A stretch of 64,000 nucleotides of DNA, taken from Roseibacillus sp. GTDB lineage: Bacteria > Verrucomicrobiota > Verrucomicrobiia > Verrucomicrobiales > Akkermansiaceae. Position 1 is the stretch's first letter. The number at the start of each line of letters is the position of its first letter. The notes beneath the pieces were generated by a model. That model worked only from the letters and a program-made list of their open reading frames with translations. It was not told the DNA's origin and did no database searches. This document shows positions 13,485-25,332 of the stretch, piece after piece. The DNA is taken from contig JBPOGI010000002.1 of NCBI GenBank assembly GCA_051251855.1, forward strand, positions 736,001 to 800,000. Reading direction: 5' to 3'. The position numbers and the translations under genes are program-made.

Positions 13485-13513
13485 AAAAAAAGCTCCGAGT
13501 GGGCTCGGAGCTT
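13485..13513 (-). terminator. Rho-independent terminator after the globin gene
   Basis: AAGCTCCGAG-TGGG-CTCGGAGCTT perfect stem with adjacent A-tract (U-tract on minus strand). Confidence 0.85.
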
Positions 13514-13537: not shown

Positions 13538-14059
13538 TTAGGCCGCTTCGCCGTATGATGCTTCTTTCATCACGGTGGCCAGAGTGGTATAGGTGATGGT
13601 CCAAGCTTCTTTGGTATCGGGAGTGAACTCGTCGCCGAGTCCTTTTTCGAGAGTGTCGAGGAGGGCTGCTCCTACCGTCTCGTAATGCTCTGCTTTGACG
13701 CCGTAGCCAACATGGCGTTTACCAAGGCTTTGGACAGCTGGGACAAGCTCGCCGAGGGTGTCGAGCCCCTTGACGGCAGCCCCGATCATTTGCATGAGCT
13801 TCTTGCCCTGTTCCTCCATGTTCGAGTCGGCAAACATCGGTTTTAAAGAGGGGTCGAGTTCGAAGAGTTTTCCGTAGAAGAGCTCTGCTGCGGTATCGGA
13901 GATAGGCTTCACTTTCTCCCAGGATTCCTGGACGAGATTTTTCTGATGAAGGGTCAAAGGGCCTTCGGGTTCGGTTTCTTCTGGCATTGGTTTGGTTGGT
14001 TCTGGTTTTGGGGGCTCAGTCGTGGAGCCGCCGAAGATTTTCTTAAAAAAGGAGATCAT
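13538..14059 (-). CDS. Single-domain globin (flavohemoglobin-like globin domain, no reductase)
   Basis: LVQESW, FYGKLF (Tyr B10), QGKKLM (Gln E7), LGKRHVGYGV (proximal His F8), HYETVGAALL, AWTITY. Confidence 0.9.
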   Translation of the reverse strand: MISFFKKIFGGSTTEPPKPEPTKPMPEETEPEGPLTLHQKNLVQESWEKVKPISDTAAELFYGKLFELDPSLKPMFADSNMEEQGKKLMQMIGAAVKGLDTLGELVPAVQSLGKRHVGYGVKAEHYETVGAALLDTLEKGLGDEFTPDTKEAWTITYTTLATVMKEASYGEAA

Positions 14060-14125
14060 GATATGGAGAGAAGGAGCCCGCCATTGGGGGCTGGAGGGCT
14101 CCGTTGGTTAATTGTTTCGAGGAGG

Positions 14126-14518
14126 CTACTTTGGAGTTGCCAACATATAGTTGACGGCATTGGTCACTTCTTCGTCGGTGAGACTGGGGGTGCCTCCGCG
14201 AGCAGGCATCTCGCCATCGGGTCCTTGAAAGCCGTTGATGGCGTGATCAAGGAGAACGGCGAGTCCCTTCTCGGACCGAGTTTCCCATTCTTCCGCTTTC
14301 GCAAGGGAAGGGGCTCCTTCCTCTCCTTCGTCGTGGCATCCCGAGCATTCGATCTGGTAGATCGCTCGTCCGGCAAGGAGGTCAGGATCGGAGGGGATCC
14401 AATCCCACGGGTGCTCGGGCTTGATTTCCTTTTCAGTTTCAGCTGCTTCCTCTGGCGAGGATTTACAGGAGGAAAGGAAGGCGAGGCTGAAGCAGGAGAG
14501 GAGAAGAAATGGCTTCAT
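14126..14518 (-). CDS. Cytochrome c5-family lipoprotein
   Basis: Lipobox FLSSC, CSGCH, GAP, W..R..KG, HAINGF...MPARGG. Confidence 0.85.
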   Translation of the reverse strand: MKPFLLLSCFSLAFLSSCKSSPEEAAETEKEIKPEHPWDWIPSDPDLLAGRAIYQIECSGCHDEGEEGAPSLAKAEEWETRSEKGLAVLLDHAINGFQGPDGEMPARGGTPSLTDEEVTNAVNYMLATPK

Positions 14519-14542
14519 TATCCAAAGTATCCAGGTGAATTG

Positions 14543-15178
14543 TTAAGAGGTGGGGATACGGATGACGATACCTCCCATGACGTCGTTCTTCTTAAACTCT
14601 GGGTAGTCTGGTTGGCGGTTTTCGTGGTTGTTGTGGCATTCCCAACAAGCAGGAGCGACGGCTTTGTCGGGATAGATTCCAACAAAGTATTCTTGTCCGC
14701 CAATCTCTTCGAGTGCAGTCCACTTCTTTCCGTAATAATCGCTGGCAGGGTCGGATACCTCAGCGAGACCTTTCTCTACGGCAGGAGTTTTCTTCTTGGC
14801 GTTCTCCATGTTGAGGGGCCAAGTCGACTGAAGAGAGTAGGAGAAGTCAAAGGGCTTGCCTTCGACGGAGTCTACTTCTTCTGCGCCTTCGCGGAACATT
14901 TGAGCAGGGAGGAGGAGGGCTTTTTCTTCGGCCCATTCTTCGTGTGCTTTGATGACCTTCTCATCTCTCACGAGACGGTTGACGATCTTGGTCGCGTAGA
15001 CTTTGCGGTCTGACTTGAGCACGATATAGAGCGCTTCGGCGACGGCTTCGGCATCGTAGCCTCCATCGGAGCCGCTGCTGGCTTCTGAGTCTCCGGACTT
15101 ACAGGAAGCAAGTGCGAAGGCGAGGGTGGTGGTGCCGGCGATCCATGTGGGGCCGATCCATCTTTTATTCATTTTCAT
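14543..15178 (-). CDS. Tll0287-like (DUF3365) monoheme c lipoprotein
   Basis: Lipobox ALASC, LLLPAQMFR, YPDKAVAPACWECHN, C-terminal DVMGGIVIRIP; start at MKMNK (15178 or 15172). Confidence 0.8.
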   Translation of the reverse strand: MKMNKRWIGPTWIAGTTTLAFALASCKSGDSEASSGSDGGYDAEAVAEALYIVLKSDRKVYATKIVNRLVRDEKVIKAHEEWAEEKALLLPAQMFREGAEEVDSVEGKPFDFSYSLQSTWPLNMENAKKKTPAVEKGLAEVSDPASDYYGKKWTALEEIGGQEYFVGIYPDKAVAPACWECHNNHENRQPDYPEFKKNDVMGGIVIRIPTS

Positions 15179-16634
15179 TTGGTAGTTTGGTTTGTTCTTC
15201 TTCGGGTGGGGTCGGGGTGGAACCGGCCTGTTCTTCTGAGGGAGATTCGAGGAATTTCTTGAGAGCGATAATCTCTTCGTTACCGCGCTCAATAGCGGCA
15301 TCGACGGTCCAGCTGATGCCGGGGTGCTCAATGGTGGGATGGCTGGCGAAGTTGCTCTTGATGAGCTTTTGGTCGGCGAGCGCGTTCATGGAGAATTGGA
15401 GTCCGTGGCAGTCCATGCAGACATTGCGCAACATCTTCTCGTTGGGAGTGAGGTTGGCGTTCTGGTTGTGATTGACGACGACTTGGCCCTCGCGCTCCTC
15501 GCGTGGCATGTGGCAGGTGGCGCAAGAGACTCCGGTGTTCTCTTCACCGGTGCCGGCGAGTTCGGCGAGCCAGAGTCGTGAGTGACCAGAGTTCAAGTAG
15601 TTCTTACTATGGTCGTCGTCGTGGCATTGAAGGCAGGCTTGTTGGGAGGCGAATTGACGGTCGTAGTTGTGGGGCTGATGGCAAGAGGAGCAAGAGAGGT
15701 CGCGATGTGCCGAGGAGGATTTCATAGGGCGTCGAGCTTGCTCGGGGGTCATCCCGGAGAGGCTTTGAGCGAGTCTCATGCCGTGCTTGCCTTTGAGGAA
15801 GTCGGTGACTTCGGGCTCGTGGCAGCTTTGGCAGGAGGAGTGGTCGGGGGATGGGACCCACGCACCGGTGGTGGGATGGTCGTGGCAGTCTGAGCAGTTT
15901 ACTCCTGCGTTGGCGTGGGCGGTGTGTTCCCAGCTGTCGTTAATGGATTGGTTGGTGAGTTGGGGGGCGGGAGCATCGGCGGTGGCGATAGTGAGGGGTT
16001 CACGCTTCTTATTTCCTTCGTCGAGCCACTTTTGCAGGGCATCGGCTTCGAGGAGGGTGCTTTCTGGAAGGAAGTCAGCTTCACCATAGTGCTTGAGGAG
16101 GAAGCTGGGGGCTAAGGCAACGTTGTCGTGGTAGTTGTGGCAGCCAGAGTCGGCGCAGGAATTGAAGGGGAGGAAGCGATGTGAATCGAGGTTGTCGAGG
16201 GTGACTTGATGGCAGTGGGCGCAGTAGTCAGGGGGGAGAGTTACGCCCATTTCGTGGGTGATTTTTTCGTTGTGCTCGGCGTGGCAGGCGACGCAGCTCA
16301 TGGCGTCCACGTGCTCAAGGTAGATGTGGTTGTCGGGGTTCTTAAACTTGCGGGTGGGGTGGGAGTCGCTGAAAGCGGTGAGGTCCTCGCCGTGGCAGTT
16401 GATACAGGCTGAGCTGGGGACGCCGGAGGAGGTGAAAATATTCTCGCTTTCTTCGTCTGTGTGGCAGGCGGCGCAGGCAAGCTCGATTTGGTAATGGCCG
16501 TGAGTGGTCTTGCCTGGGAGGAGGACGGTTTTGTCTTCGGCCCTGAGAAGGATGTGGCTCAACCACGCAGAAAGGCCCACTGTGACGATGAGCCAGAGTA
16601 GGATGCTTTTTCGTTTTTGAATCCAATGAGCCAC
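15165..16634 (-). CDS. Membrane-anchored multiheme cytochrome c (10 CxxCH + 1 CxxxxCH)
   Basis: N-terminal TM helix; CAACH, CINCH, CVACH, CAHCH, CADSGCH, CSDCH, CQSCH, CSSCH, CLQCH, CATCH, CMDCH; no CxxCK. Confidence 0.9.
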   Translation of the reverse strand: MAHWIQKRKSILLWLIVTVGLSAWLSHILLRAEDKTVLLPGKTTHGHYQIELACAACHTDEESENIFTSSGVPSSACINCHGEDLTAFSDSHPTRKFKNPDNHIYLEHVDAMSCVACHAEHNEKITHEMGVTLPPDYCAHCHQVTLDNLDSHRFLPFNSCADSGCHNYHDNVALAPSFLLKHYGEADFLPESTLLEADALQKWLDEGNKKREPLTIATADAPAPQLTNQSINDSWEHTAHANAGVNCSDCHDHPTTGAWVPSPDHSSCQSCHEPEVTDFLKGKHGMRLAQSLSGMTPEQARRPMKSSSAHRDLSCSSCHQPHNYDRQFASQQACLQCHDDDHSKNYLNSGHSRLWLAELAGTGEENTGVSCATCHMPREEREGQVVVNHNQNANLTPNEKMLRNVCMDCHGLQFSMNALADQKLIKSNFASHPTIEHPGISWTVDAAIERGNEEIIALKKFLESPSEEQAGSTPTPPEEEQTKLPNENE

Positions 16635-16642
16635 GAAGTTTT

Positions 16643-18655
16643 TTAGTAAAGGTAGACCGAGAGAATGTGGAAGGTGAGGAGCACGGGGAGGGGCCAGAAG
16701 AGAATGAGGTGCGCGTAGGTGAGGGCGGGGCGGAAGCGTCTGGCGGTGAGGGCAGCCTTGGAATTACCGGCGCTTTCGATGGCTGCGACGACTCCAGCAA
16801 GGGCTCCTAGTAGATTGAGAGCTACGAAAGTGAACATGAGCCAGAAGTTTAGGTTGTGACCGAAGCGGAATCCGGTGTGAACGAACAATGCCAAGAGGGC
16901 AATGATGCCGAAGGCGGTATGAAAGACCCTCCAGTAGGCGAAGTGGCCAAAGCGAAACCACTTGATGCGCTTGCGAAGTGAGAGGAGAAGCCCAATCAGG
17001 AAGATGCCCATGAGGGTGTATCCGGTAATCTGCTTGATGACGCCGTCGCGCCAAAATTGGTCGACTTGATACCACCATGATGCGACTGAGTCGGCCATCG
17101 CTGGTGGGGGAGCAAAGATAGTGATGAGGACGGCAAGGAGAGCAAGAATGGAGAGGGCGAGAAGGGCGCGTGCTCCCTTGGGTTTCGAAACGACGGGGGC
17201 TCCGCAAAGTTCATCTAGGAGAGGTTCGCAGGAACCGCAAACGGTGGACGCGCTGGTCTGGGCGGCGAGAAGTTTGGGGTCGTTCTTGCACTTAGCGAGG
17301 CAGGCGACGAGCTGCCCCTTGTTGACTCCCATGCAGTTGCAAACGATGCGCTCGTCGGGCCATTGGGCGACCGGTGTTTCGCCGCCACCTGGTTGGAGGA
17401 CACCTTCGGCGGCGAAGTAGTCTTCTTCCTTCTTCTTGATGAATTGTCCCTCGGCATAGAGAGATTGGATTTTTCCACCTTCAGGCCAGTCGCCTACTCC
17501 AAGGCCGCCTTTGAGTTCTCCCTTGGGTCCTAAGATGAGCATGCGGTAGAGATCGTCGGTGGAGAACTCGACGCGTCGGCCTTCTTCGAGGGGGTCGCCA
17601 ATGGTGATGACGTCTACCCCGAGCATTTTAAGTCGAGTGGAAAGGTCAGGAGTGGGGAAGGGGGCGATCTTTTGCCCTTCGAGGCGCGCGATGAGGTGGC
17701 GGGCCATGGCGTAGCCCGGAGCGGCGAGGCCATAGATGTTTCCATCGAGGAGGGCGCATTCACCGATGGCGAAGATATTGTCTTCGCTGGTCTCGAAGTG
17801 GTCGTTGACGACGATGCCTCCGCGGAGACCTGTCTCTAATCCGGAGTTTTTGGCAAGCTCGCTATTGGGGGTGATACCGGCGGAGATGACGACGAGGTCG
17901 CAGTCGAGGGGATCGCCTTTGTCGAAGACGAGCCTGAGTTGTTCGCCGGTGTCCTCGATGGTGGTAGAGCCTTTGCCTAGGTAGAGTCCGATGCCTTGCT
18001 CTGTAATGGATTTTTGAAGGAGAGTGGATGCGGTTTCGTTGAGTTGGCGGGGCATCAAGAACGAGGCTCGCTCGACGACGTCTGCTTTGAGTCCCAGTTT
18101 TTGAATGGCTTGAGCGGCTTCGAGACCGAGGAGTCCACCCCCGACGACTGCGGCTTTGGATTTACCCTTGGAGGCTGAAATAATGGACTTGAGGTCGACT
18201 ATATTGCGGTAGAGGAAAACGTTGGGATGGTCACCGCCGGGAATGGGAGGGACGAAGGGGCGTGAGCCGGTGGCGAAGACGAGGATGTCGTAGTTGTGCT
18301 TGGTTTCATCCGAAAGGGTGACGCACTTGAGCTTGGGGTCGACTGCGACGACTTCGGTGCTAGTGAGGAGGGTAATTCCTTTTTCCTGATACCACTCTTC
18401 GCTGTTGAAGATGAGCTGGCTGGCATCCTTGTGGTCAACGTAGGTTGAGAGGTTGATGCGGTCGTAGGCGGGGAGAGGTTCTTTGCCGACGACGGTAATC
18501 TCCAGGTTAGGGAAAATCTTCGATTGGGTGAAATACTCACAGAGCTTTCCTCCGACCATGCCGTTGCCAATCACCAAGAGGCGAGAACCTTTGGGCAACG
18601 CCTGGCGGCGGCTTGCCTTCTTGTTCTTGGATTGACCTTGAAAGGCGGACTTCAC
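16643..18655 (-). CDS. NirB/NasD N-terminal-like FAD/NAD(P)H oxidoreductase with BFD [2Fe-2S] and a C-terminal multi-TM putative diheme-b domain
   Basis: VIGNGMVG, PAYDRINLS, VGGGLLGLEAA, IFAIGECA, STRLKMLGVDV, CNC-X31-CGSC; no siroheme domain; hydrophobic C-terminus with two H-X13-H pairs. Confidence 0.85.
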   Translation of the reverse strand: MKSAFQGQSKNKKASRRQALPKGSRLLVIGNGMVGGKLCEYFTQSKIFPNLEITVVGKEPLPAYDRINLSTYVDHKDASQLIFNSEEWYQEKGITLLTSTEVVAVDPKLKCVTLSDETKHNYDILVFATGSRPFVPPIPGGDHPNVFLYRNIVDLKSIISASKGKSKAAVVGGGLLGLEAAQAIQKLGLKADVVERASFLMPRQLNETASTLLQKSITEQGIGLYLGKGSTTIEDTGEQLRLVFDKGDPLDCDLVVISAGITPNSELAKNSGLETGLRGGIVVNDHFETSEDNIFAIGECALLDGNIYGLAAPGYAMARHLIARLEGQKIAPFPTPDLSTRLKMLGVDVITIGDPLEEGRRVEFSTDDLYRMLILGPKGELKGGLGVGDWPEGGKIQSLYAEGQFIKKKEEDYFAAEGVLQPGGGETPVAQWPDERIVCNCMGVNKGQLVACLAKCKNDPKLLAAQTSASTVCGSCEPLLDELCGAPVVSKPKGARALLALSILALLAVLITIFAPPPAMADSVASWWYQVDQFWRDGVIKQITGYTLMGIFLIGLLLSLRKRIKWFRFGHFAYWRVFHTAFGIIALLALFVHTGFRFGHNLNFWLMFTFVALNLLGALAGVVAAIESAGNSKAALTARRFRPALTYAHLILFWPLPVLLTFHILSVYLY

Positions 18656-18666
18656 TCTTTGAGTTG

Positions 18667-18683
18667 AGCATTCGGGTAACCAA
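18667..18683 (-). promoter_or_regulatory. sigma54-like -24/-12 element upstream of the oxidoreductase-cytochrome operon
   Basis: Minus strand TTGGTTACCCGAATGCT; 12 nt between GC and the GTG start. Confidence 0.55.
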
Positions 18684-18779: not shown

Positions 18780-18794
18780 ATGATTGGATTTCAT
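18780..18794. promoter_or_regulatory. LysR-type operator palindrome (variant)
   Basis: ATGATT-GGA-TTTCAT. Confidence 0.6.
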
Positions 18795-18989: not shown

Positions 18990-19019
18990 AAAAAAACTCC
19001 GACGAATGAATCGTCGGAG
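18990..19019 (-). terminator. Rho-independent terminator after nrtB
   Basis: CTCCGACGA-ATGAA-TCGTCGGAG stem with adjacent A7 tract. Confidence 0.85.
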
Positions 19020-19051: not shown

Positions 19052-20686
19052 CTAGGCGGTGGCGGAACCGTCATCGAAGGAGACGAGGCGTTGGAGTATA
19101 ATCATCAAGCGGTCGAGGAAGAATCCAATGACTCCTACCACGAAGCAGGCGAGGATGATGTTGGCAAAGGATTGTGAGGAGCCATTTTGATATTCGTCCC
19201 AGACATACTTGCCGAGTCCGTCGGATGAGGAAAGGGCTTCAGCGGCGATGAGGACCATCCAGCCCACTCCGAGTGAGATGCGCAGGCCGGCGAAGACAAG
19301 CGGAAGGGAGGAGGGAATGACGATTTTGAAAAGGCGGGACCAGAAGCCGAGCTTGAGAACCTTGGCGACATTGAGGTGGTCTTTATCGATGGCAGAAACG
19401 CCGAGCGCGGTGTTGACCAACGCAGGCCAGAGGGCGCACATAGCAACGGTGCAGGCCGAGAAGATCATGGCGGGGTTGGTTTGCAGAAAAGACAAGGGGT
19501 TGAGGGAGTCGTTCATGAAAACGAAGAGGGGATGGCTCGCTGGATCGGGGAGGAAAAAGGCGCCGACGATGATTTGGAAAATAAGGAGCCAAACGACCGG
19601 TGATACTGGGCGGAAGATTGAAATGAGAGGCGTCATGGAAGCCATGAAGATACGATTGAGTCCGCACATGATACCGAGAGGAATGGCTACGACAGCGGCA
19701 ATGAGGAACCCTACGAAGACGGTGGCGATAGAGCGCTTAGTCTGCCAAAAAATGGTAGCGGTGCGAGGGTAGGTTTGTTCGCTCGTGCTGGCAGCGCGTT
19801 CGCTGTTTTTGACGACAGACTTCGCTTCTTTGAGGGCTTCTTTTCCAGTAGCAGCGGCGGCGAGTTGCTGGGTGTCTTCTTTGGCCTTGGCGATGAGGGT
19901 TGCTTCTTTGACGCTGCGGTTTCCAGTAGTGAGAATGTCGATGAGCTTCTTGTAGTGCTGCACTTCGTCGGCTACCTTGTTCGTTGCGAGTTGAGATGAT
20001 TTGACCTCTTCAGGAGGGTTGTCTCGAATGAGGTCGAGCTCGTCTTTAAGCAGGGTTTCTGCATTTTTTTCCTTCTCTTCGAAGGCGGTGCTTTCTTTCA
20101 CGAGAGCGATGAGTTTTTCAGGGGATGCTTCCTTCAGCGCGACCTTTTCTGCGAGGGTTTCTAAGGCGAGGTCTCGAGCGTCTTCGGCGGCATTATTCTT
20201 CGCCTTGATGGCATCATAGCGAGCTTGCACGGGGGCGAGCTTGGCGTTCATTTCTTCCTTGGAGGAGGCTGCGATTTCGACTGCCTTTTTTTGGAGCTTG
20301 GCTTGCTCGGCTTCGAGGGTGATGAGTTCTTTCTTGGCGCGTTCGATTTCTTCCAACCGTGGCTTGCCAGTGAGGCCGAAGGCGTTCTCCTTCTCGTTCT
20401 CGCGCTCATTAAAACGTCGGGCGTCGTTGAACGCGGTGCTGACGGCAGCTGGACCGGGGACTTCGCCGGACTTGGTCTTCAGTTTAGTGATGACGGTGGC
20501 CCAGATGAAGATGAGAATGGAAACAAAGACGATAGGAACGACCATGTATTGGGCGATGTCTTTGACTTGTTTCTGAGGCTCCTCGCCAAAGAGGAGTCTA
20601 ACGGGCGGGTCGAGAACCTTAAAGCCGCTGACATCGATGACCTTGAGAATTCCGTATTTGATTTTGTCCTTGGGTGAGTCTGACAT
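19052..20686 (-). CDS. nrtB: Nitrate ABC transporter permease (NrtB-like) with long coiled-coil insert
   Basis: GEVPGP, IFRPVSPVVWL, LWPALVNTALGV, GLRISLGVGWMVLIAAE, GLGKYVWDEYQNG; start MSDSP (20686). Confidence 0.85.
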   Translation of the reverse strand: MSDSPKDKIKYGILKVIDVSGFKVLDPPVRLLFGEEPQKQVKDIAQYMVVPIVFVSILIFIWATVITKLKTKSGEVPGPAAVSTAFNDARRFNERENEKENAFGLTGKPRLEEIERAKKELITLEAEQAKLQKKAVEIAASSKEEMNAKLAPVQARYDAIKAKNNAAEDARDLALETLAEKVALKEASPEKLIALVKESTAFEEKEKNAETLLKDELDLIRDNPPEEVKSSQLATNKVADEVQHYKKLIDILTTGNRSVKEATLIAKAKEDTQQLAAAATGKEALKEAKSVVKNSERAASTSEQTYPRTATIFWQTKRSIATVFVGFLIAAVVAIPLGIMCGLNRIFMASMTPLISIFRPVSPVVWLLIFQIIVGAFFLPDPASHPLFVFMNDSLNPLSFLQTNPAMIFSACTVAMCALWPALVNTALGVSAIDKDHLNVAKVLKLGFWSRLFKIVIPSSLPLVFAGLRISLGVGWMVLIAAEALSSSDGLGKYVWDEYQNGSSQSFANIILACFVVGVIGFFLDRLMIILQRLVSFDDGSATA

Positions 20687-20805: not shown

Positions 20806-21693
20806 TTACGGTTTTTGAATGATAATACGGAAGCCGATGTTGTAGCTACGGCTTTCGGGGCCAGAGCTGTAGCGGTAGGCTGACCGGCAGCTATTGGCGG
20901 TTCGGTTCCAAGTTCCCCCGCGAATATTTCTACCGTCACCTGTTTCGGGGCCTTGGGGATCGTTCCCGCCGCTGGCTTTCTCGGAATACCAGTCGGCACA
21001 CCATTCGTAGAGGTTGCCGTGCATGTCGTAGAGTCCCCATGCGTTGGGTTCGAAGCTTTTTACCTCGGTCGTTTTTTCGCGGTACTCGCCTTCTTCAGTG
21101 AGACCGTAGGGCTTCTTGCCATAGAAGTTTGCTTGTTCAGCGCTGAGGGTGTTACCGAATGAGAAGACGGTGCGCGTGCCTGCGCGGCAGGCGTATTCCC
21201 ATTGGGCTTCGGTGGGGAGGGTGTAGGCGAGTTCCTTTGGAAGAACTCCGGACTCGTGTTCAGTTTGGGTAAGGATCTTGGCAAAGGAGATGGCGTCTGA
21301 CCAGTTGACGAAGCTCATGGGTTGATTGGGTCCTATTGCTGAAGCTTCTGCGACCAAGTTAGCTCCGCGCCCGATAGGGCCTTCTTTGATGTCGATTTGC
21401 TGTTGGATGGTCTTTCCCATGACGGCGAGCCATTGTCCTTGCGTAATCTCGGATTCAGACATGAGGAAGTTCTGCGAAATTTTCACGGAGACTTCGTCTT
21501 CGTCGTTGCCACGGCCTTTTTCCGTTTCGGGGCTGCCCATTACAAATTCGCCGGCAGTGATGGGGAGCATTTTGAGGCCGATGCTGTTGTTGTAGGGTTC
21601 GGTGAGAAGTCTTTCGTCAGCAAGAGAAGTATGGGTGCCGAGAGCGAGGGTTACCACGGCGAGAAAGGGGAGGGGCCAGAGTTTTTGCTGCAT
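20806..21693 (-). CDS. Exported formylglycine-generating-enzyme (SUMF1/NirV/PvdO-like) domain protein
   Basis: Signal peptide, GEFVMGSP, LPTEAQWEYACRAG, PNAWGLYDMHGNLYEWC, RGGTW, IGFR. Confidence 0.85.
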   Translation of the reverse strand: MQQKLWPLPFLAVVTLALGTHTSLADERLLTEPYNNSIGLKMLPITAGEFVMGSPETEKGRGNDEDEVSVKISQNFLMSESEITQGQWLAVMGKTIQQQIDIKEGPIGRGANLVAEASAIGPNQPMSFVNWSDAISFAKILTQTEHESGVLPKELAYTLPTEAQWEYACRAGTRTVFSFGNTLSAEQANFYGKKPYGLTEEGEYREKTTEVKSFEPNAWGLYDMHGNLYEWCADWYSEKASGGNDPQGPETGDGRNIRGGTWNRTANSCRSAYRYSSGPESRSYNIGFRIIIQKP

Positions 21694-23206: not shown

Positions 23207-24283
23207 TTAGTTTTCTTTGACTCCTGGAACGGAGGTTGAGAGTTGTTCTTGGGCTTGCTCGAAGAGGTCCATGCGGAAGATGAAGTCGTTGGGGAGCTGT
23301 TGCCCTTTTCTAAGAAGTCCCGAGAGGCGGACTCCTTCGCGCAGCCACGAAGCTGTCTTGCTAGTGGGAGCGTTGACTTCCTTGTCGTGAAAGATGTGAA
23401 AGTCGGGAAAGGACTTTTCGGGGTTTCCACTGGTGGCAGGAAGGCGACCCAAGAGGCTGAAGGGGAGGGAATCTTGGATAAGGTTCATTCCGGGTTCGGC
23501 TGAGAGGTAAGTGAGAACTTCGTTGTGATTGCTTGGATTCTGGCAATACTGGCAGGCTTCCAAGAGGGCGCTAGTGAGGGATCGGAGCTCGTTAGGATGG
23601 CTTTCAGCAAAGCTGAGAGTGGCAGCGAGTACTTTCTCGGGGTGGCCGTTAGAGAGTTCTATCGAGTTGGAAACGCACCAGCCGATTCCTTGCATCATGG
23701 CCACCGAGTTCCAAGGTTCGCCCACACAGCAGCCGTCAATATGACCGTGGGAAAGACTACGAATCATGATTTCTGGTGGAAGAGAAATGATTTCGACGAA
23801 GGGGTGTTTTGCAATTCCATTTCGCTTGAGCCACAGGAGAAGGAGCGAGTGATGTGAAGAGCAGGGATGCACGGAGGCGAGGGTGAGGGGGGACTCCTTG
23901 CTGTAGTTTTCTTCGATGAAAGCTAGGAATTCTCCAGGCTTATCGAACATGTCACGGGGAATCTTATTAGAGAGGGTAAGGCCGTTACCGTTGGCGCTAA
24001 GCACGAGGGGAACGACCATTTCTTTGGGGATTGTGCCGACGCCGTGATGGATGGCGAGGGCGAGAGGTCCGAGGCATTGGGCTGCGTCGAGCTCGGCGTG
24101 AACGAGTTTTTCGCGAACGGTGGCCCAGCCTGGCTCTTGGGAGGTGACAACGTTGACACCATGCTTTGCAAAGAGTCCCTTCTCTCGAGCAACGATGATC
24201 GGAGCGCAGTCAATGAGGGGGATATACCCCAATCGGATTGGCTGGTTAGTGATTGTGAGAAGGTTGGAATCAGGTGAAACCAT
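23207..24283 (-). CDS. Cytoplasmic NrtA-paralogue (NasS-like nitrate/nitrite sensor)
   Basis: [31 protein letters not shown]; no signal peptide. Confidence 0.75.
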
Positions 24284-24359: not shown

Positions 24360-24374
24360 ATGAACCCCATTCAT
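24360..24374. promoter_or_regulatory. LysR-type operator palindrome overlapping the LysR start codon
   Basis: ATGAAC-CCC-ATTCAT in the divergent intergenic region; position typical of LysR autoregulation. Confidence 0.7.
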
Positions 24375-25332
24375 GTACCGTGAATTACCAGACCTGCGCC
24401 AAGTAAGAGCCTTTGTGGCGCTTGCAGATACCCAGTCCTTTACGCGGGCGGCTGAGACTTTATTTTTGACGCAGTCGGCGGTAAGCCATTCGATTCGCAG
24501 TCTTGAGCAGCAACTGGAGGTTCAGTTGGTGGAACGTTCGGGCAAGAAAATTGCTCTCACGCAGGACGGAGTTGTTTTTCTTCGACGTTGTCGTTCAGTG
24601 ATTAGCGAGTTGGAGCAAGCCACCCAAGAAATGGAGGCGCTTAAGCGTTGGGGCCAAGGCAGAATTCGATTAGGGGCGACCCACACGCTTTGCCAGTATC
24701 TCTTGCCGACAGTGCTGCGGGAGTTTCGCGATTGTTTTCCACGTTGTGAAGTTCACATCGAGTCGGGCGACACGGCGGAACTCATGCAAAAGCTTGAGGA
24801 TGCTCAGCTCGATTTGGTTTTGGGGTTAGGTGGTCGCACACCCAACTGGGCCGCTTTTCTCCCCGTGTTCGATGATGAGCTGGTTTTCGTGGTGTCCGCG
24901 CAGCACCCTTGGGCGAACAAAGTAGAGATTCCTTTGGAGGAAATTGGCAGCGAGTCTTTTCTAATTTATGCGAAGAAGAGTGAGACCTATCGGCTCATTC
25001 GCAATCACTTCGAGGGTCTTGGCGTCAAGCTAAGGACCACGCTCAACCTAGGTGCGATGGAGGCCATTAAAGAAATGGCACGTATTGGAATTGGGGTTGG
25101 GATCGTTTCGCCTTGGGTGGCTCGAAAGGAATTGGAGCGAGGTCAACTCGTGCAGGTTCCCATTCGAAAGGAGCCTCTCACCAGGGAGTGGGGGGTCTTT
25201 TGTCACGAGAGTAAGAAGCTTTCATTGGTCGAAGATACTTTCGTGGGAATCTGTGAGGTGACGGCTCGGACCTTCAATGCTTCACCAACGGCCCCAACTG
25301 AAAAAGCCGTCGACCTTGCGGCGACGGCTTAG
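24373..25332 (+). CDS. LysR-family transcriptional regulator
   Basis: HTH SFTRAAETLFLTQSAVSHSIRSLE, substrate-binding domain, EAIKEMARIGIGV. Confidence 0.95.
   Translation: MYRELPDLRQVRAFVALADTQSFTRAAETLFLTQSAVSHSIRSLEQQLEVQLVERSGKKIALTQDGVVFLRRCRSVISELEQATQEMEALKRWGQGRIRLGATHTLCQYLLPTVLREFRDCFPRCEVHIESGDTAELMQKLEDAQLDLVLGLGGRTPNWAAFLPVFDDELVFVVSAQHPWANKVEIPLEEIGSESFLIYAKKSETYRLIRNHFEGLGVKLRTTLNLGAMEAIKEMARIGIGVGIVSPWVARKELERGQLVQVPIRKEPLTREWGVFCHESKKLSLVEDTFVGICEVTARTFNASPTAPTEKAVDLAATA

Follow-up and report, generated by a model that had tools for sequence, protein, structure and literature searches.

A putative NADH-to-periplasm electron conduit with an 11-haem cytochrome and a globin in a nitrate-assimilation island of Roseibacillus

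What does a NirB-like flavoprotein fused to a membrane domain do when it is encoded next to an 11-haem cytochrome and a globin inside a nitrate-assimilation island? The question is raised by a five-gene operon found in 64,000 nucleotides (nt) of Roseibacillus sp. (assembly GCA_051251855.1, contig JBPOGI010000002.1, positions 736,001 to 800,000), a stretch referred to here as the window. A first reading of its letters, hereafter the original prediction, had proposed an electron conduit from reduced nicotinamide adenine dinucleotide (NADH) to the periplasm under nitrate control. The analysis here presented favours an outward NADH conduit that, together with the globin, would remove the nitric oxide (NO) formed during nitrate assimilation, a statement to which, taken as a whole, we assign a probability of about one half. 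The conduit architecture is well supported and very probably correct, the electron flow is probably outward, NO removal is the most likely purpose, and the terminal acceptor is the weakest step of the proposed chain.

The product of gene 1 comprises a NirB-N-type flavin adenine dinucleotide (FAD)/NADH reductase (residues 25 to ~420), one BFD [2Fe-2S] domain and a membrane domain of five helices. Its match to the NirB profile TIGR02374 covers only positions 1-470 of 794 and scores 421.7, below the cut-off of 578.35. The FAD/NADH domain and the first BFD cluster are shared with NirB, whereas the sirohaem/[4Fe-4S] half is replaced by five membrane helices with four histidines; PF01077 matches are located elsewhere in the genome, and a full NirB or NirA is encoded separately from the operon. 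The BFD cysteines C439, C441, C473 and C476 are all kept in 69 of 69 homologues. Five hydrophobic segments occupy residues 492-669 and carry two H-X13-H pairs, His579/593 on helix 3 and His649/663 on helix 5, present in 69/69 homologues and 66/66 metagenome copies (in an 81-sequence alignment one of the four stands at 0.99).

Two His pairs on alternate helices and spaced 14 apart are also found in ferric reductase/NOX/MsrQ and cytochrome b561 domains, and the membrane domain is predicted to bind two b haems. Given a cytoplasmic flavin domain and the basic loops that follow helices 2 and 4, the two haems would be placed close to opposite faces of the membrane. The likeness to ferric reductases, NOX and MsrPQ presumably extends to a cytoplasmic NAD(P)H-flavin input and outward transfer to a periplasmic partner; the reductase of gene 1 differs in being NirB-type and N-terminal, and its acceptor in being a predicted docked multihaem cytochrome. 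No Pfam family was assigned to the membrane domain itself and no match to it was found by PDB sequence search; weak Pfam matches (E<=1) involved DUF4405 in 31/68 homologues, PF01292 in 22/68 and PF01794 in 6/68. In whole-protein fold searches the FAD domain crowded out other matches, and Atlas matches all stayed below 0.9.

The same membrane domain is joined to BFD and an FNR-type FAD/NAD module in two of 14 selected proteins (P0175 and P0213); since this module is unrelated, NAD(P)H input appears to have been acquired twice. These two proteins also carry cyclic nucleotide monophosphate (cNMP) or EF-hand domains, a make-up that we take to be reminiscent of calcium-regulated NOX5. In other Verrucomicrobiota (L099-L103, from G048, G300, G237, G141 and G285), distant relatives of the membrane domain are flanked on one side by a cNMP-binding/4Fe-4S protein and on the other by a decahaem cytochrome, an arrangement that looks like a second uncharacterised conduit of the same plan. 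The recurring plan would thus be a cytoplasmic redox module, a four-His membrane domain and a multihaem cytochrome. One protein in which genes 1 and 2 are joined (P0267, 1174 aa, on a single contig) was set aside as fusion evidence, because its retained anchor helix would place the haems on the wrong side; it possibly reflects a lost stop.

Gene 2 encodes ten CxxCH motifs and one CX4CH, in keeping with the 11 haems originally counted. Its product has a membrane anchor, an N-terminal part with five haems, the fifth being the CX4CH one followed by an invariant NYHDN, and then an HAO-like part with six. The structure model (predicted local distance difference test, pLDDT, 83.6; predicted template modelling score, pTM, 0.80) matches the HAO superfamily over residues ~210-432. 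Foldseek gave an E of 6.7e-5 against 6t5e, and VIA a Z of 10.0 against 4qo5, with an rmsd (root-mean-square deviation) of 4.3 over 211 residues; across 4qo5, 6m0p, 4n4j and 6h5l, Z was 9.2-10.0 and rmsd 4.1-9.5 with ~200 residues aligned. Comparison by hhalign with the eight-haem HAO-like P0268 from a carrier genome (probability 98.4) aligns haems 6-11 to haems 2, 3, 5, 6, 7 and 8 of the HAO-like protein. The catalytic haem-4 CxxCH, which in HAO stands ten residues before haem 5, has lost both cysteines, and His310, aligned to the His of that motif, is kept in only 65/82 and 28/76 sequences. The C-terminal half of gene 2 is thus of HAO ancestry and has lost the haem-4 motif; neither this ancestry nor the swapping of globin and H-NOX described below was part of the original prediction.

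The six C-terminal haems share core fold and order with the HAO/IhOCC/Kustc0458/ONR/OcwA superfamily, from which gene 2 differs by the lost haem-4 motif, by a chain after the last haem too short for the long C-terminal helices, and by its extra membrane anchor and five-haem N-terminal part with CX4CH. In a comparison with NrfA/ONR it scored 15.6 against NF008339 for a cut-off of 595, and undecahaem OmhA was rejected as its identity (Z 5.1). Eleven non-motif histidines are conserved (47, 92, 121, 152, 169, 240, 284, 322, 342, 351 and 389); with as many spare His as haems, a wire in which all haems are bis-His coordinated fits, and an electron wire is the preferred reading of the sequence. Six short variants among 82 sequences have neither haem 6 nor His240 and His322, and, since two spare His are lost with one haem, the His count is not a strict haem assignment. 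Ten-haem variants with haem 6 deleted and one Cys left at its site occur at L006 and L014-L018. Searches for shorter relatives returned mostly fragments on short contigs; at L092 (G317:C38) an eight-haem HAO-like gene is followed by a shorter HAO-like gene apparently without the haem-4 motif.

Multimer modelling of the fusion with the multihaem protein, as proposed with the original prediction, docked gene 2 residues 1-450 on the gene 1 membrane domain with a score of 0.72, the best control reaching 0.01. Among solved complexes 116 of 157 attain the docking mark applied, as do 2 of 215 mismatched pairs; with custom alignments these figures are valid only approximately. At least 94% of contacts agree among docking runs, and partner pLDDT is at least 82. 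The predicted interface involves, on the cytochrome side, the anchor helix, residues 36-42, haem 1 (54, 58), 133-140 and 157-158 and, on the other side, those loops and the C-terminus of the membrane domain that are expected outside. The anchor helix and haems 1, 4 and 5 would accordingly sit on the periplasmic face. No solved sequence relative of this interface was found for either partner; the model supports binding of the gene 2 cytochrome by the gene 1 membrane domain.

When GTDB genomes were scanned with gene 2, 522 of 598 candidate stretches were confirmed, and the best 80 loci were analysed together with a second set of 80 metagenome loci; downstream counts refer to the 66 genome loci with enough downstream DNA and to 38 metagenome loci. 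The fusion lies directly 5' of the 11-haem gene in 79/79 genome loci with upstream DNA and in 66/66 metagenome loci, so that the adjacency is near-universal among the loci surveyed. Conserved His pairs, this synteny and docking above controls together bear out the conduit architecture. A gene 3 homologue is nearby in 65/66 and 36/38 loci, a c5 (gene 4) homologue in 31/66 and 13/38, and any globin in 57/66 and 30/38. The best 80 loci belong to Verrucomicrobiota, Planctomycetota, Lentisphaerae, Gammaproteobacteria, Methylomirabilota and Binatia, and include the named isolates Roseibacillus persicicus, Blastopirellula marina and Stieleria species; close relatives come from Roseibacillus. The distribution of the operon is uneven: strong matches were present in 4 of 301 genomes sampled from its own phylum (own genome counted) and in 3 of 401 from the phylum of a gammaproteobacterium (centre genome counted), and a profile search returned 402 clusters at E<=1e-30. 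A plasmid search gave no match, a search for RNA holders listed none, which says nothing about expression, and two Pseudomonadota matches with reported stops proved not to be split genes. At L074 two tandem fusion-cytochrome-Tll0287 units are found in one genome. As foreseen, relatives in JGI are labelled 'nitrite reductase (NADH) large subunit' and 'formate-dependent nitrite reductase cytochrome c552'. No description of the operon was found in the open-access PMC and bioRxiv literature, subscription journals lying outside this coverage.

Gene 3 encodes a Tll0287-like (Cache_heme) monohaem lipoprotein with CxxCH (PF11845, 52.5 bits for a cut-off of 24.1), for which the PDB sequence search gave no match. 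It shares PF11845, CxxCH and a stand-alone, periplasmic make-up with Tll0287/sCache_heme proteins but differs in its lipobox, in its conserved His and Met and in having no conserved distal Cys: among 74 family sequences the only conserved Cys are those of lipobox and motif, and Cys/His ligation in the style of Tll0287 is thus not found. Gene 4 encodes a cytochrome c5/c555-like lipoprotein, optional among relatives; an early lipobox-type Cys occurs in 0.92 of the 74 gene 3 and 0.97 of 37 gene 4 sequences. Gene 5 encodes a single-domain myoglobin-fold globin (PF00042) without signal peptide or hydrophobic segment, whose PDB matches are 3s1i, 1vhb and 2wy4, and which shares the 3/3 globin fold with single-domain NO-dioxygenase-type globins (Cgb, Vgb and Bjgb). 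Its Tyr62, Gln84 and His116, which we take to be Tyr B10, Gln E7 and His F8, are invariant in 60 of 60 sequences.

The five genes lie on the same strand and are as tightly packed as originally described, with, from gene 1 to gene 5, a gap of 8 nt, an overlap of 14 nt and gaps of 24 and 66 nt (Table 1). The terminator already claimed at the 3' end is confirmed as a hairpin. Since another hairpin splits the operon from nrtB, the promoter, first described as an island promoter with a LysR-type box and GG-N10-GC, retains both elements but belongs to the operon itself and is one of six alike. The ATGA-N7-TCAT palindrome is read as a LysR-type site on the assumption of a T-N11-A rule; LysR control at sigma54-type promoters would be unusual. 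The genome encodes an RpoN-box protein. For nasS (24310), gene 1 (18682) and nrtC (13265), GG-N10-GC ends 11-12 nt 5' of the start codon, and given this position their transcripts would be leaderless ones of sigma54 type. A consensus terminator scan picked up neither operon hairpin, and no sigma70 excess was found.

Table 1. Window positions of the operon, its signals and neighbouring nitrate genes
Feature	Position	Strand	Remarks
Gene 1	16643-18655	minus	Open reading frame (ORF), 670 aa
Gene 1 membrane domain, residues 492-670	16643-17182	minus	Predicted di-haem b; AlphaFold helices
Gene 2	15165-16634	minus	ORF, 489 aa
Gene 3	14543-15178	minus	ORF, 211 aa
Gene 4	14126-14518	minus	ORF, 130 aa
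Gene 5	13538-14059	minus	ORF, 173 aa
Hairpin 3' of nrtB, terminator-like	18990-19019	minus	-20.1 kcal/mol, z -6.0, U-run
ATGA-N7-TCAT palindrome	18780-18794	minus	Also at five other nitrate-island units
GG-N10-GC sigma54-like element	18668-18682	minus	12 nt 5' of gene 1 start codon
Hairpin between genes 4 and 5	14073-14102	minus	-20.3 kcal/mol, z -4.3, without U-run
Intrinsic terminator-like hairpin, operon 3' end	13485-13513	minus	z -5.1; 0/200 shuffles fold equally well
NasS-like cytoplasmic NMT1-family protein, candidate nitrate sensor	23207-24283	minus	NasS label from family and position
LysR regulator, candidate binder of palindrome	24373-25332	plus	Family match
NirA-family nitrite reductase	106-1920	minus	Same palindrome upstream

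The nitrate control put forward in the original prediction fits with both genome co-occurrence and the shared promoter motif, which tie the operon to nitrate assimilation. The nitrate island in the window holds an ATP-binding cassette nitrate-type transporter, a porin, the NasS-like protein, the LysR regulator and NirA; beyond nirA, just outside, lie flavodoxin-like, DmsBC-like and nitrate reductase genes. Of 39 palindromes genome-wide, six fall within the 35-kilobase (kb) island, for 0.28 expected, one 5' of each unit and every copy followed by GG-N10-GC. In 11 of 59 related loci (0.36 expected from shuffles) the palindrome likewise stands 5' of the fusion; a nasT-like ANTAR gene is found directly 5' of it in 7/102 loci, and a nitrate gene within the fetched 10 kb in 31/46 long loci. 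In the phylum sample of 301, this nitrate reductase occurs in 29 genomes, and all four operon carriers belong to these (nominal P 7e-4 with the own genome excluded, a value overstated because kin are not independent). In a carrier set of 50 genomes from 80 loci, which favours long contigs, a close nitrate-reductase orthologue (E<1e-200) is present in 36 and NirA or NirB in 47; NirB is also present in each of the two carriers picked randomly from the other phylum. This makes the operon an accessory to nitrate assimilation rather than a core step, and replacement of the assimilatory nitrite reductase is rejected. A link to denitrification is likewise rejected, NirS being found in 4/50 carriers and NirK over the cut-off in 3/50.

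Some neighbouring genes deserve mention. Left of the window (G000:C6:731484-736038), the nitrate reductase gene comes after a membrane fusion of 4Fe-4S/DmsC-like type and a flavodoxin-like gene, which suggests that assimilatory nitrate reduction in Planctomycetota-Verrucomicrobiota-Chlamydiota (PVC) bacteria has a membrane-linked donor. At 19052-20686 an NrtB-like permease of ~544 aa has a long N-terminal coiled-coil-like insertion common to PVC relatives, and at 20806-21693 an FGE-sulfatase-like secreted protein is encoded inside the island, adjoining the fusion in several relatives.

The link to NO comes from the position occupied by the globin. Myoglobin-like globins fill it in 52/66 genome and 26/38 metagenome loci and truncated ones in 5/66 and 4/38, never both in one locus. 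At 2 of 80 metagenome loci the flavoprotein carries a fused H-NOX domain whose proximal His103 and YxSxR motif are intact and whose best solved match is the NO-binding sensor 4u99. At one of these two (L180) no globin is present in 6 kb downstream. That three kinds of gas-binding haem domain share this position suggests NO or O2 as the ligand. Gene 5 is the only PF00042 globin found in this genome (95% complete), where no NorB-like, Hcp, flavodiiron, NirS or NirK genes were found; among carriers, 6/50 have a NorB-like gene and 1/50 Hcp, the NorB query having been named by gene context and not by family match. Separately from the operon, a stand-alone H-NOX gene (G000:C9:246288-248223) adjoins a sigma54 enhancer-binding-type protein.

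A precedent is offered by Bradyrhizobium, where assimilatory nitrate reductase is reported to make NO, which Bjgb and Flp remove (PMC4724949). Its narK-bjgb-flp-nasC genes share with the operon a single-domain globin and a flavoprotein tied to assimilatory nitrate reduction, NasS-linked control, and a proposed job of NO removal. On the contrary, a membrane haem domain, a multihaem cytochrome and a periplasmic arm were not reported there, and growth on nitrate requires Flp (PMC4724949). The operon, for its part, is absent from most sampled nitrate assimilators. It is moreover a separately terminated unit, apart from nitrate reductase, and would not be co-transcribed with it in the manner of Bjgb-Flp-NasC. 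Judged by their defining features, it is neither a NirB, an HAO or an NrfA system nor a Bjgb-Flp operon; by analogy, it would resemble an outward conduit of MsrPQ/NOX type joined to a Bjgb-like NO defence.

Within the proposed chain, electrons would pass from cytoplasmic NADH to FAD, to [2Fe-2S], to the two predicted b haems and to the periplasmic 11-haem wire. The cytoplasmic globin would act as an O2-dependent NO dioxygenase, and, with little O2 present, the outer arm may reduce NO either on the cytochrome or at the Cache_heme protein. Outward flow is expected, NADH being the strongest reductant and the export of an electron being favoured by the membrane potential. Of the roles suggested in the original prediction, NO handling fits better, and redox balancing and inward flow less well.

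Several observations weigh against NO removal by an outward conduit. (i) A nitrate gene is not found within 10 kb in 15/46 long loci, and 25 of the 29 nitrate-reductase genomes in the phylum sample do without the operon, which is thus dispensable. (ii) Four metagenome loci (L127, L128, L136 and L164) hold a Tll0287-like gene, the membrane domain alone and the 11-haem cytochrome; the DNA fetched there contains neither a flavoprotein nor a globin nor a nitrate gene. (iii) No globin is seen in 9/66 genome and 8/38 metagenome loci, globins and H-NOX domains are also able to sense O2, and truncated-globin loci often have their own 2Fe-2S/FNR reductase (5/14, plus L110 and L111), so that the fusion need not serve the globin there. 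(iv) The scarcity of Nor and Hcp in carriers has no matched background, and the genomes are partly incomplete. (v) If all 11 haems were bis-His coordinated, the cytochrome would be left without an NO-binding site. (vi) The stand-alone Cache_heme protein of P. putida bound NO weakly and was electron-carrier-like, with a potential of +123 mV, in a paper whose main text mentions neither operon nor nitrate nor multiheme (10.64898/2026.02.01.703092).

Instead of a wire, the 11-haem protein may itself be an enzyme with a rebuilt active site, which would turn nitrite, NO or hydroxylamine into periplasmic ammonium with electrons from NADH as nitrogen salvage. The HAO/NrfA-superfamily fold of the gene 2 model agrees with such a role, as does the placement of Asp340 (81/82 and 76/76 sequences) and His342 (82/82 and 76/76) at the position of the post-haem-6 His of the HAO-like protein, which we take to be the catalytic His of HAO. 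The invariant NYHDN right after the CX4CH haem favours it too, and Asp340, Met401 and NYHDN are as invariant in gene 2 relatives as the spare His. A comparable case is provided by MccA and cytochrome c554, described as having lost haem 4 and performing catalysis at another haem (10.1101/2022.02.24.481543). On the contrary, spare His equal haems in number (11), so that His342 and His169 are explicable as plain ligands, the CxxCK motif of the NrfA/ONR catalytic haem is not among the gene 2 motifs, all of them CxxCH or CX4CH, and carriers already have NirA or NirB. We therefore regard it as unlikely. In a more specific form, an undescribed NADH-driven periplasmic nitrogen-oxide reductase, with CX4CH-NYHDN and Asp340/His342 as active site and the globin or H-NOX as gate, would convert leaked NO or nitrite into ammonium, which appears rather unlikely.

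A gas-regulated respiratory branch, in which NADH electrons would reach cbb3-type oxidases via c5 to lower O2 or spill reductant, and in which the globin or H-NOX would act as a sensor or carry O2, seems quite unlikely. Gene 4 is indeed c5/c555-like, cbb3-type and aa3-type oxidases are encoded in the genome, the cNMP and EF-hand domains of the FNR-type versions suggest a regulated output, and the stand-alone Cache_heme relative looks like a carrier (10.64898/2026.02.01.703092). Nevertheless, c5 is missing from over half of the loci, 11 haems of HAO ancestry would be excessive, the solved structures nearest to the fused H-NOX are NO-binding sensors, and nitrate assimilation uses reductant, so that spilling NADH under the same control would be counter-productive. 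A second cbb3-like cluster (G000:C7:580597-586584) lies beside genes whose sequence-read labels are peroxiredoxin-like, CoA-disulfide-reductase-like and monohaem lipoprotein.

Finally, inward or cytoplasmic flow, with the flavoprotein feeding nitrate or nitrite reductase, or only the globin, and the periplasmic haems as an input, is very unlikely. In its favour, the N-terminal half of gene 1 is NirB-like, assimilation needs extra electrons, flavoprotein-free versions exist and Bradyrhizobium Flp is reported to donate to NasC and Bjgb (PMC4724949). Against it, most nitrate-reductase genomes do without the operon, flavodoxin-like and DmsBC-like genes already belong to the NirA/NasA cluster of this genome, no recurrent periplasmic donor enzyme was found among the neighbours, and NAD+ reduction from c haems is uphill twice over.

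If outward NADH-driven NO removal is true, the operon would represent an unrecognised NO sink in aerobic nitrate-assimilating Verrucomicrobia, Planctomycetes, Lentisphaerae and Gammaproteobacteria, uncounted by surveys that rely on nor, hmp or hcp. The HAO/NrfA family would likewise gain a branch without the canonical catalytic haem, and there would be a new membrane haem family that connects NAD(P)H with multihaem proteins of the periplasm. Because databases label its genes nirB or nrfA-like, counts for nitrite reduction and for dissimilatory nitrate reduction to ammonium in metagenomes are inflated. As the operon is present in named isolates, the proposal is directly testable.

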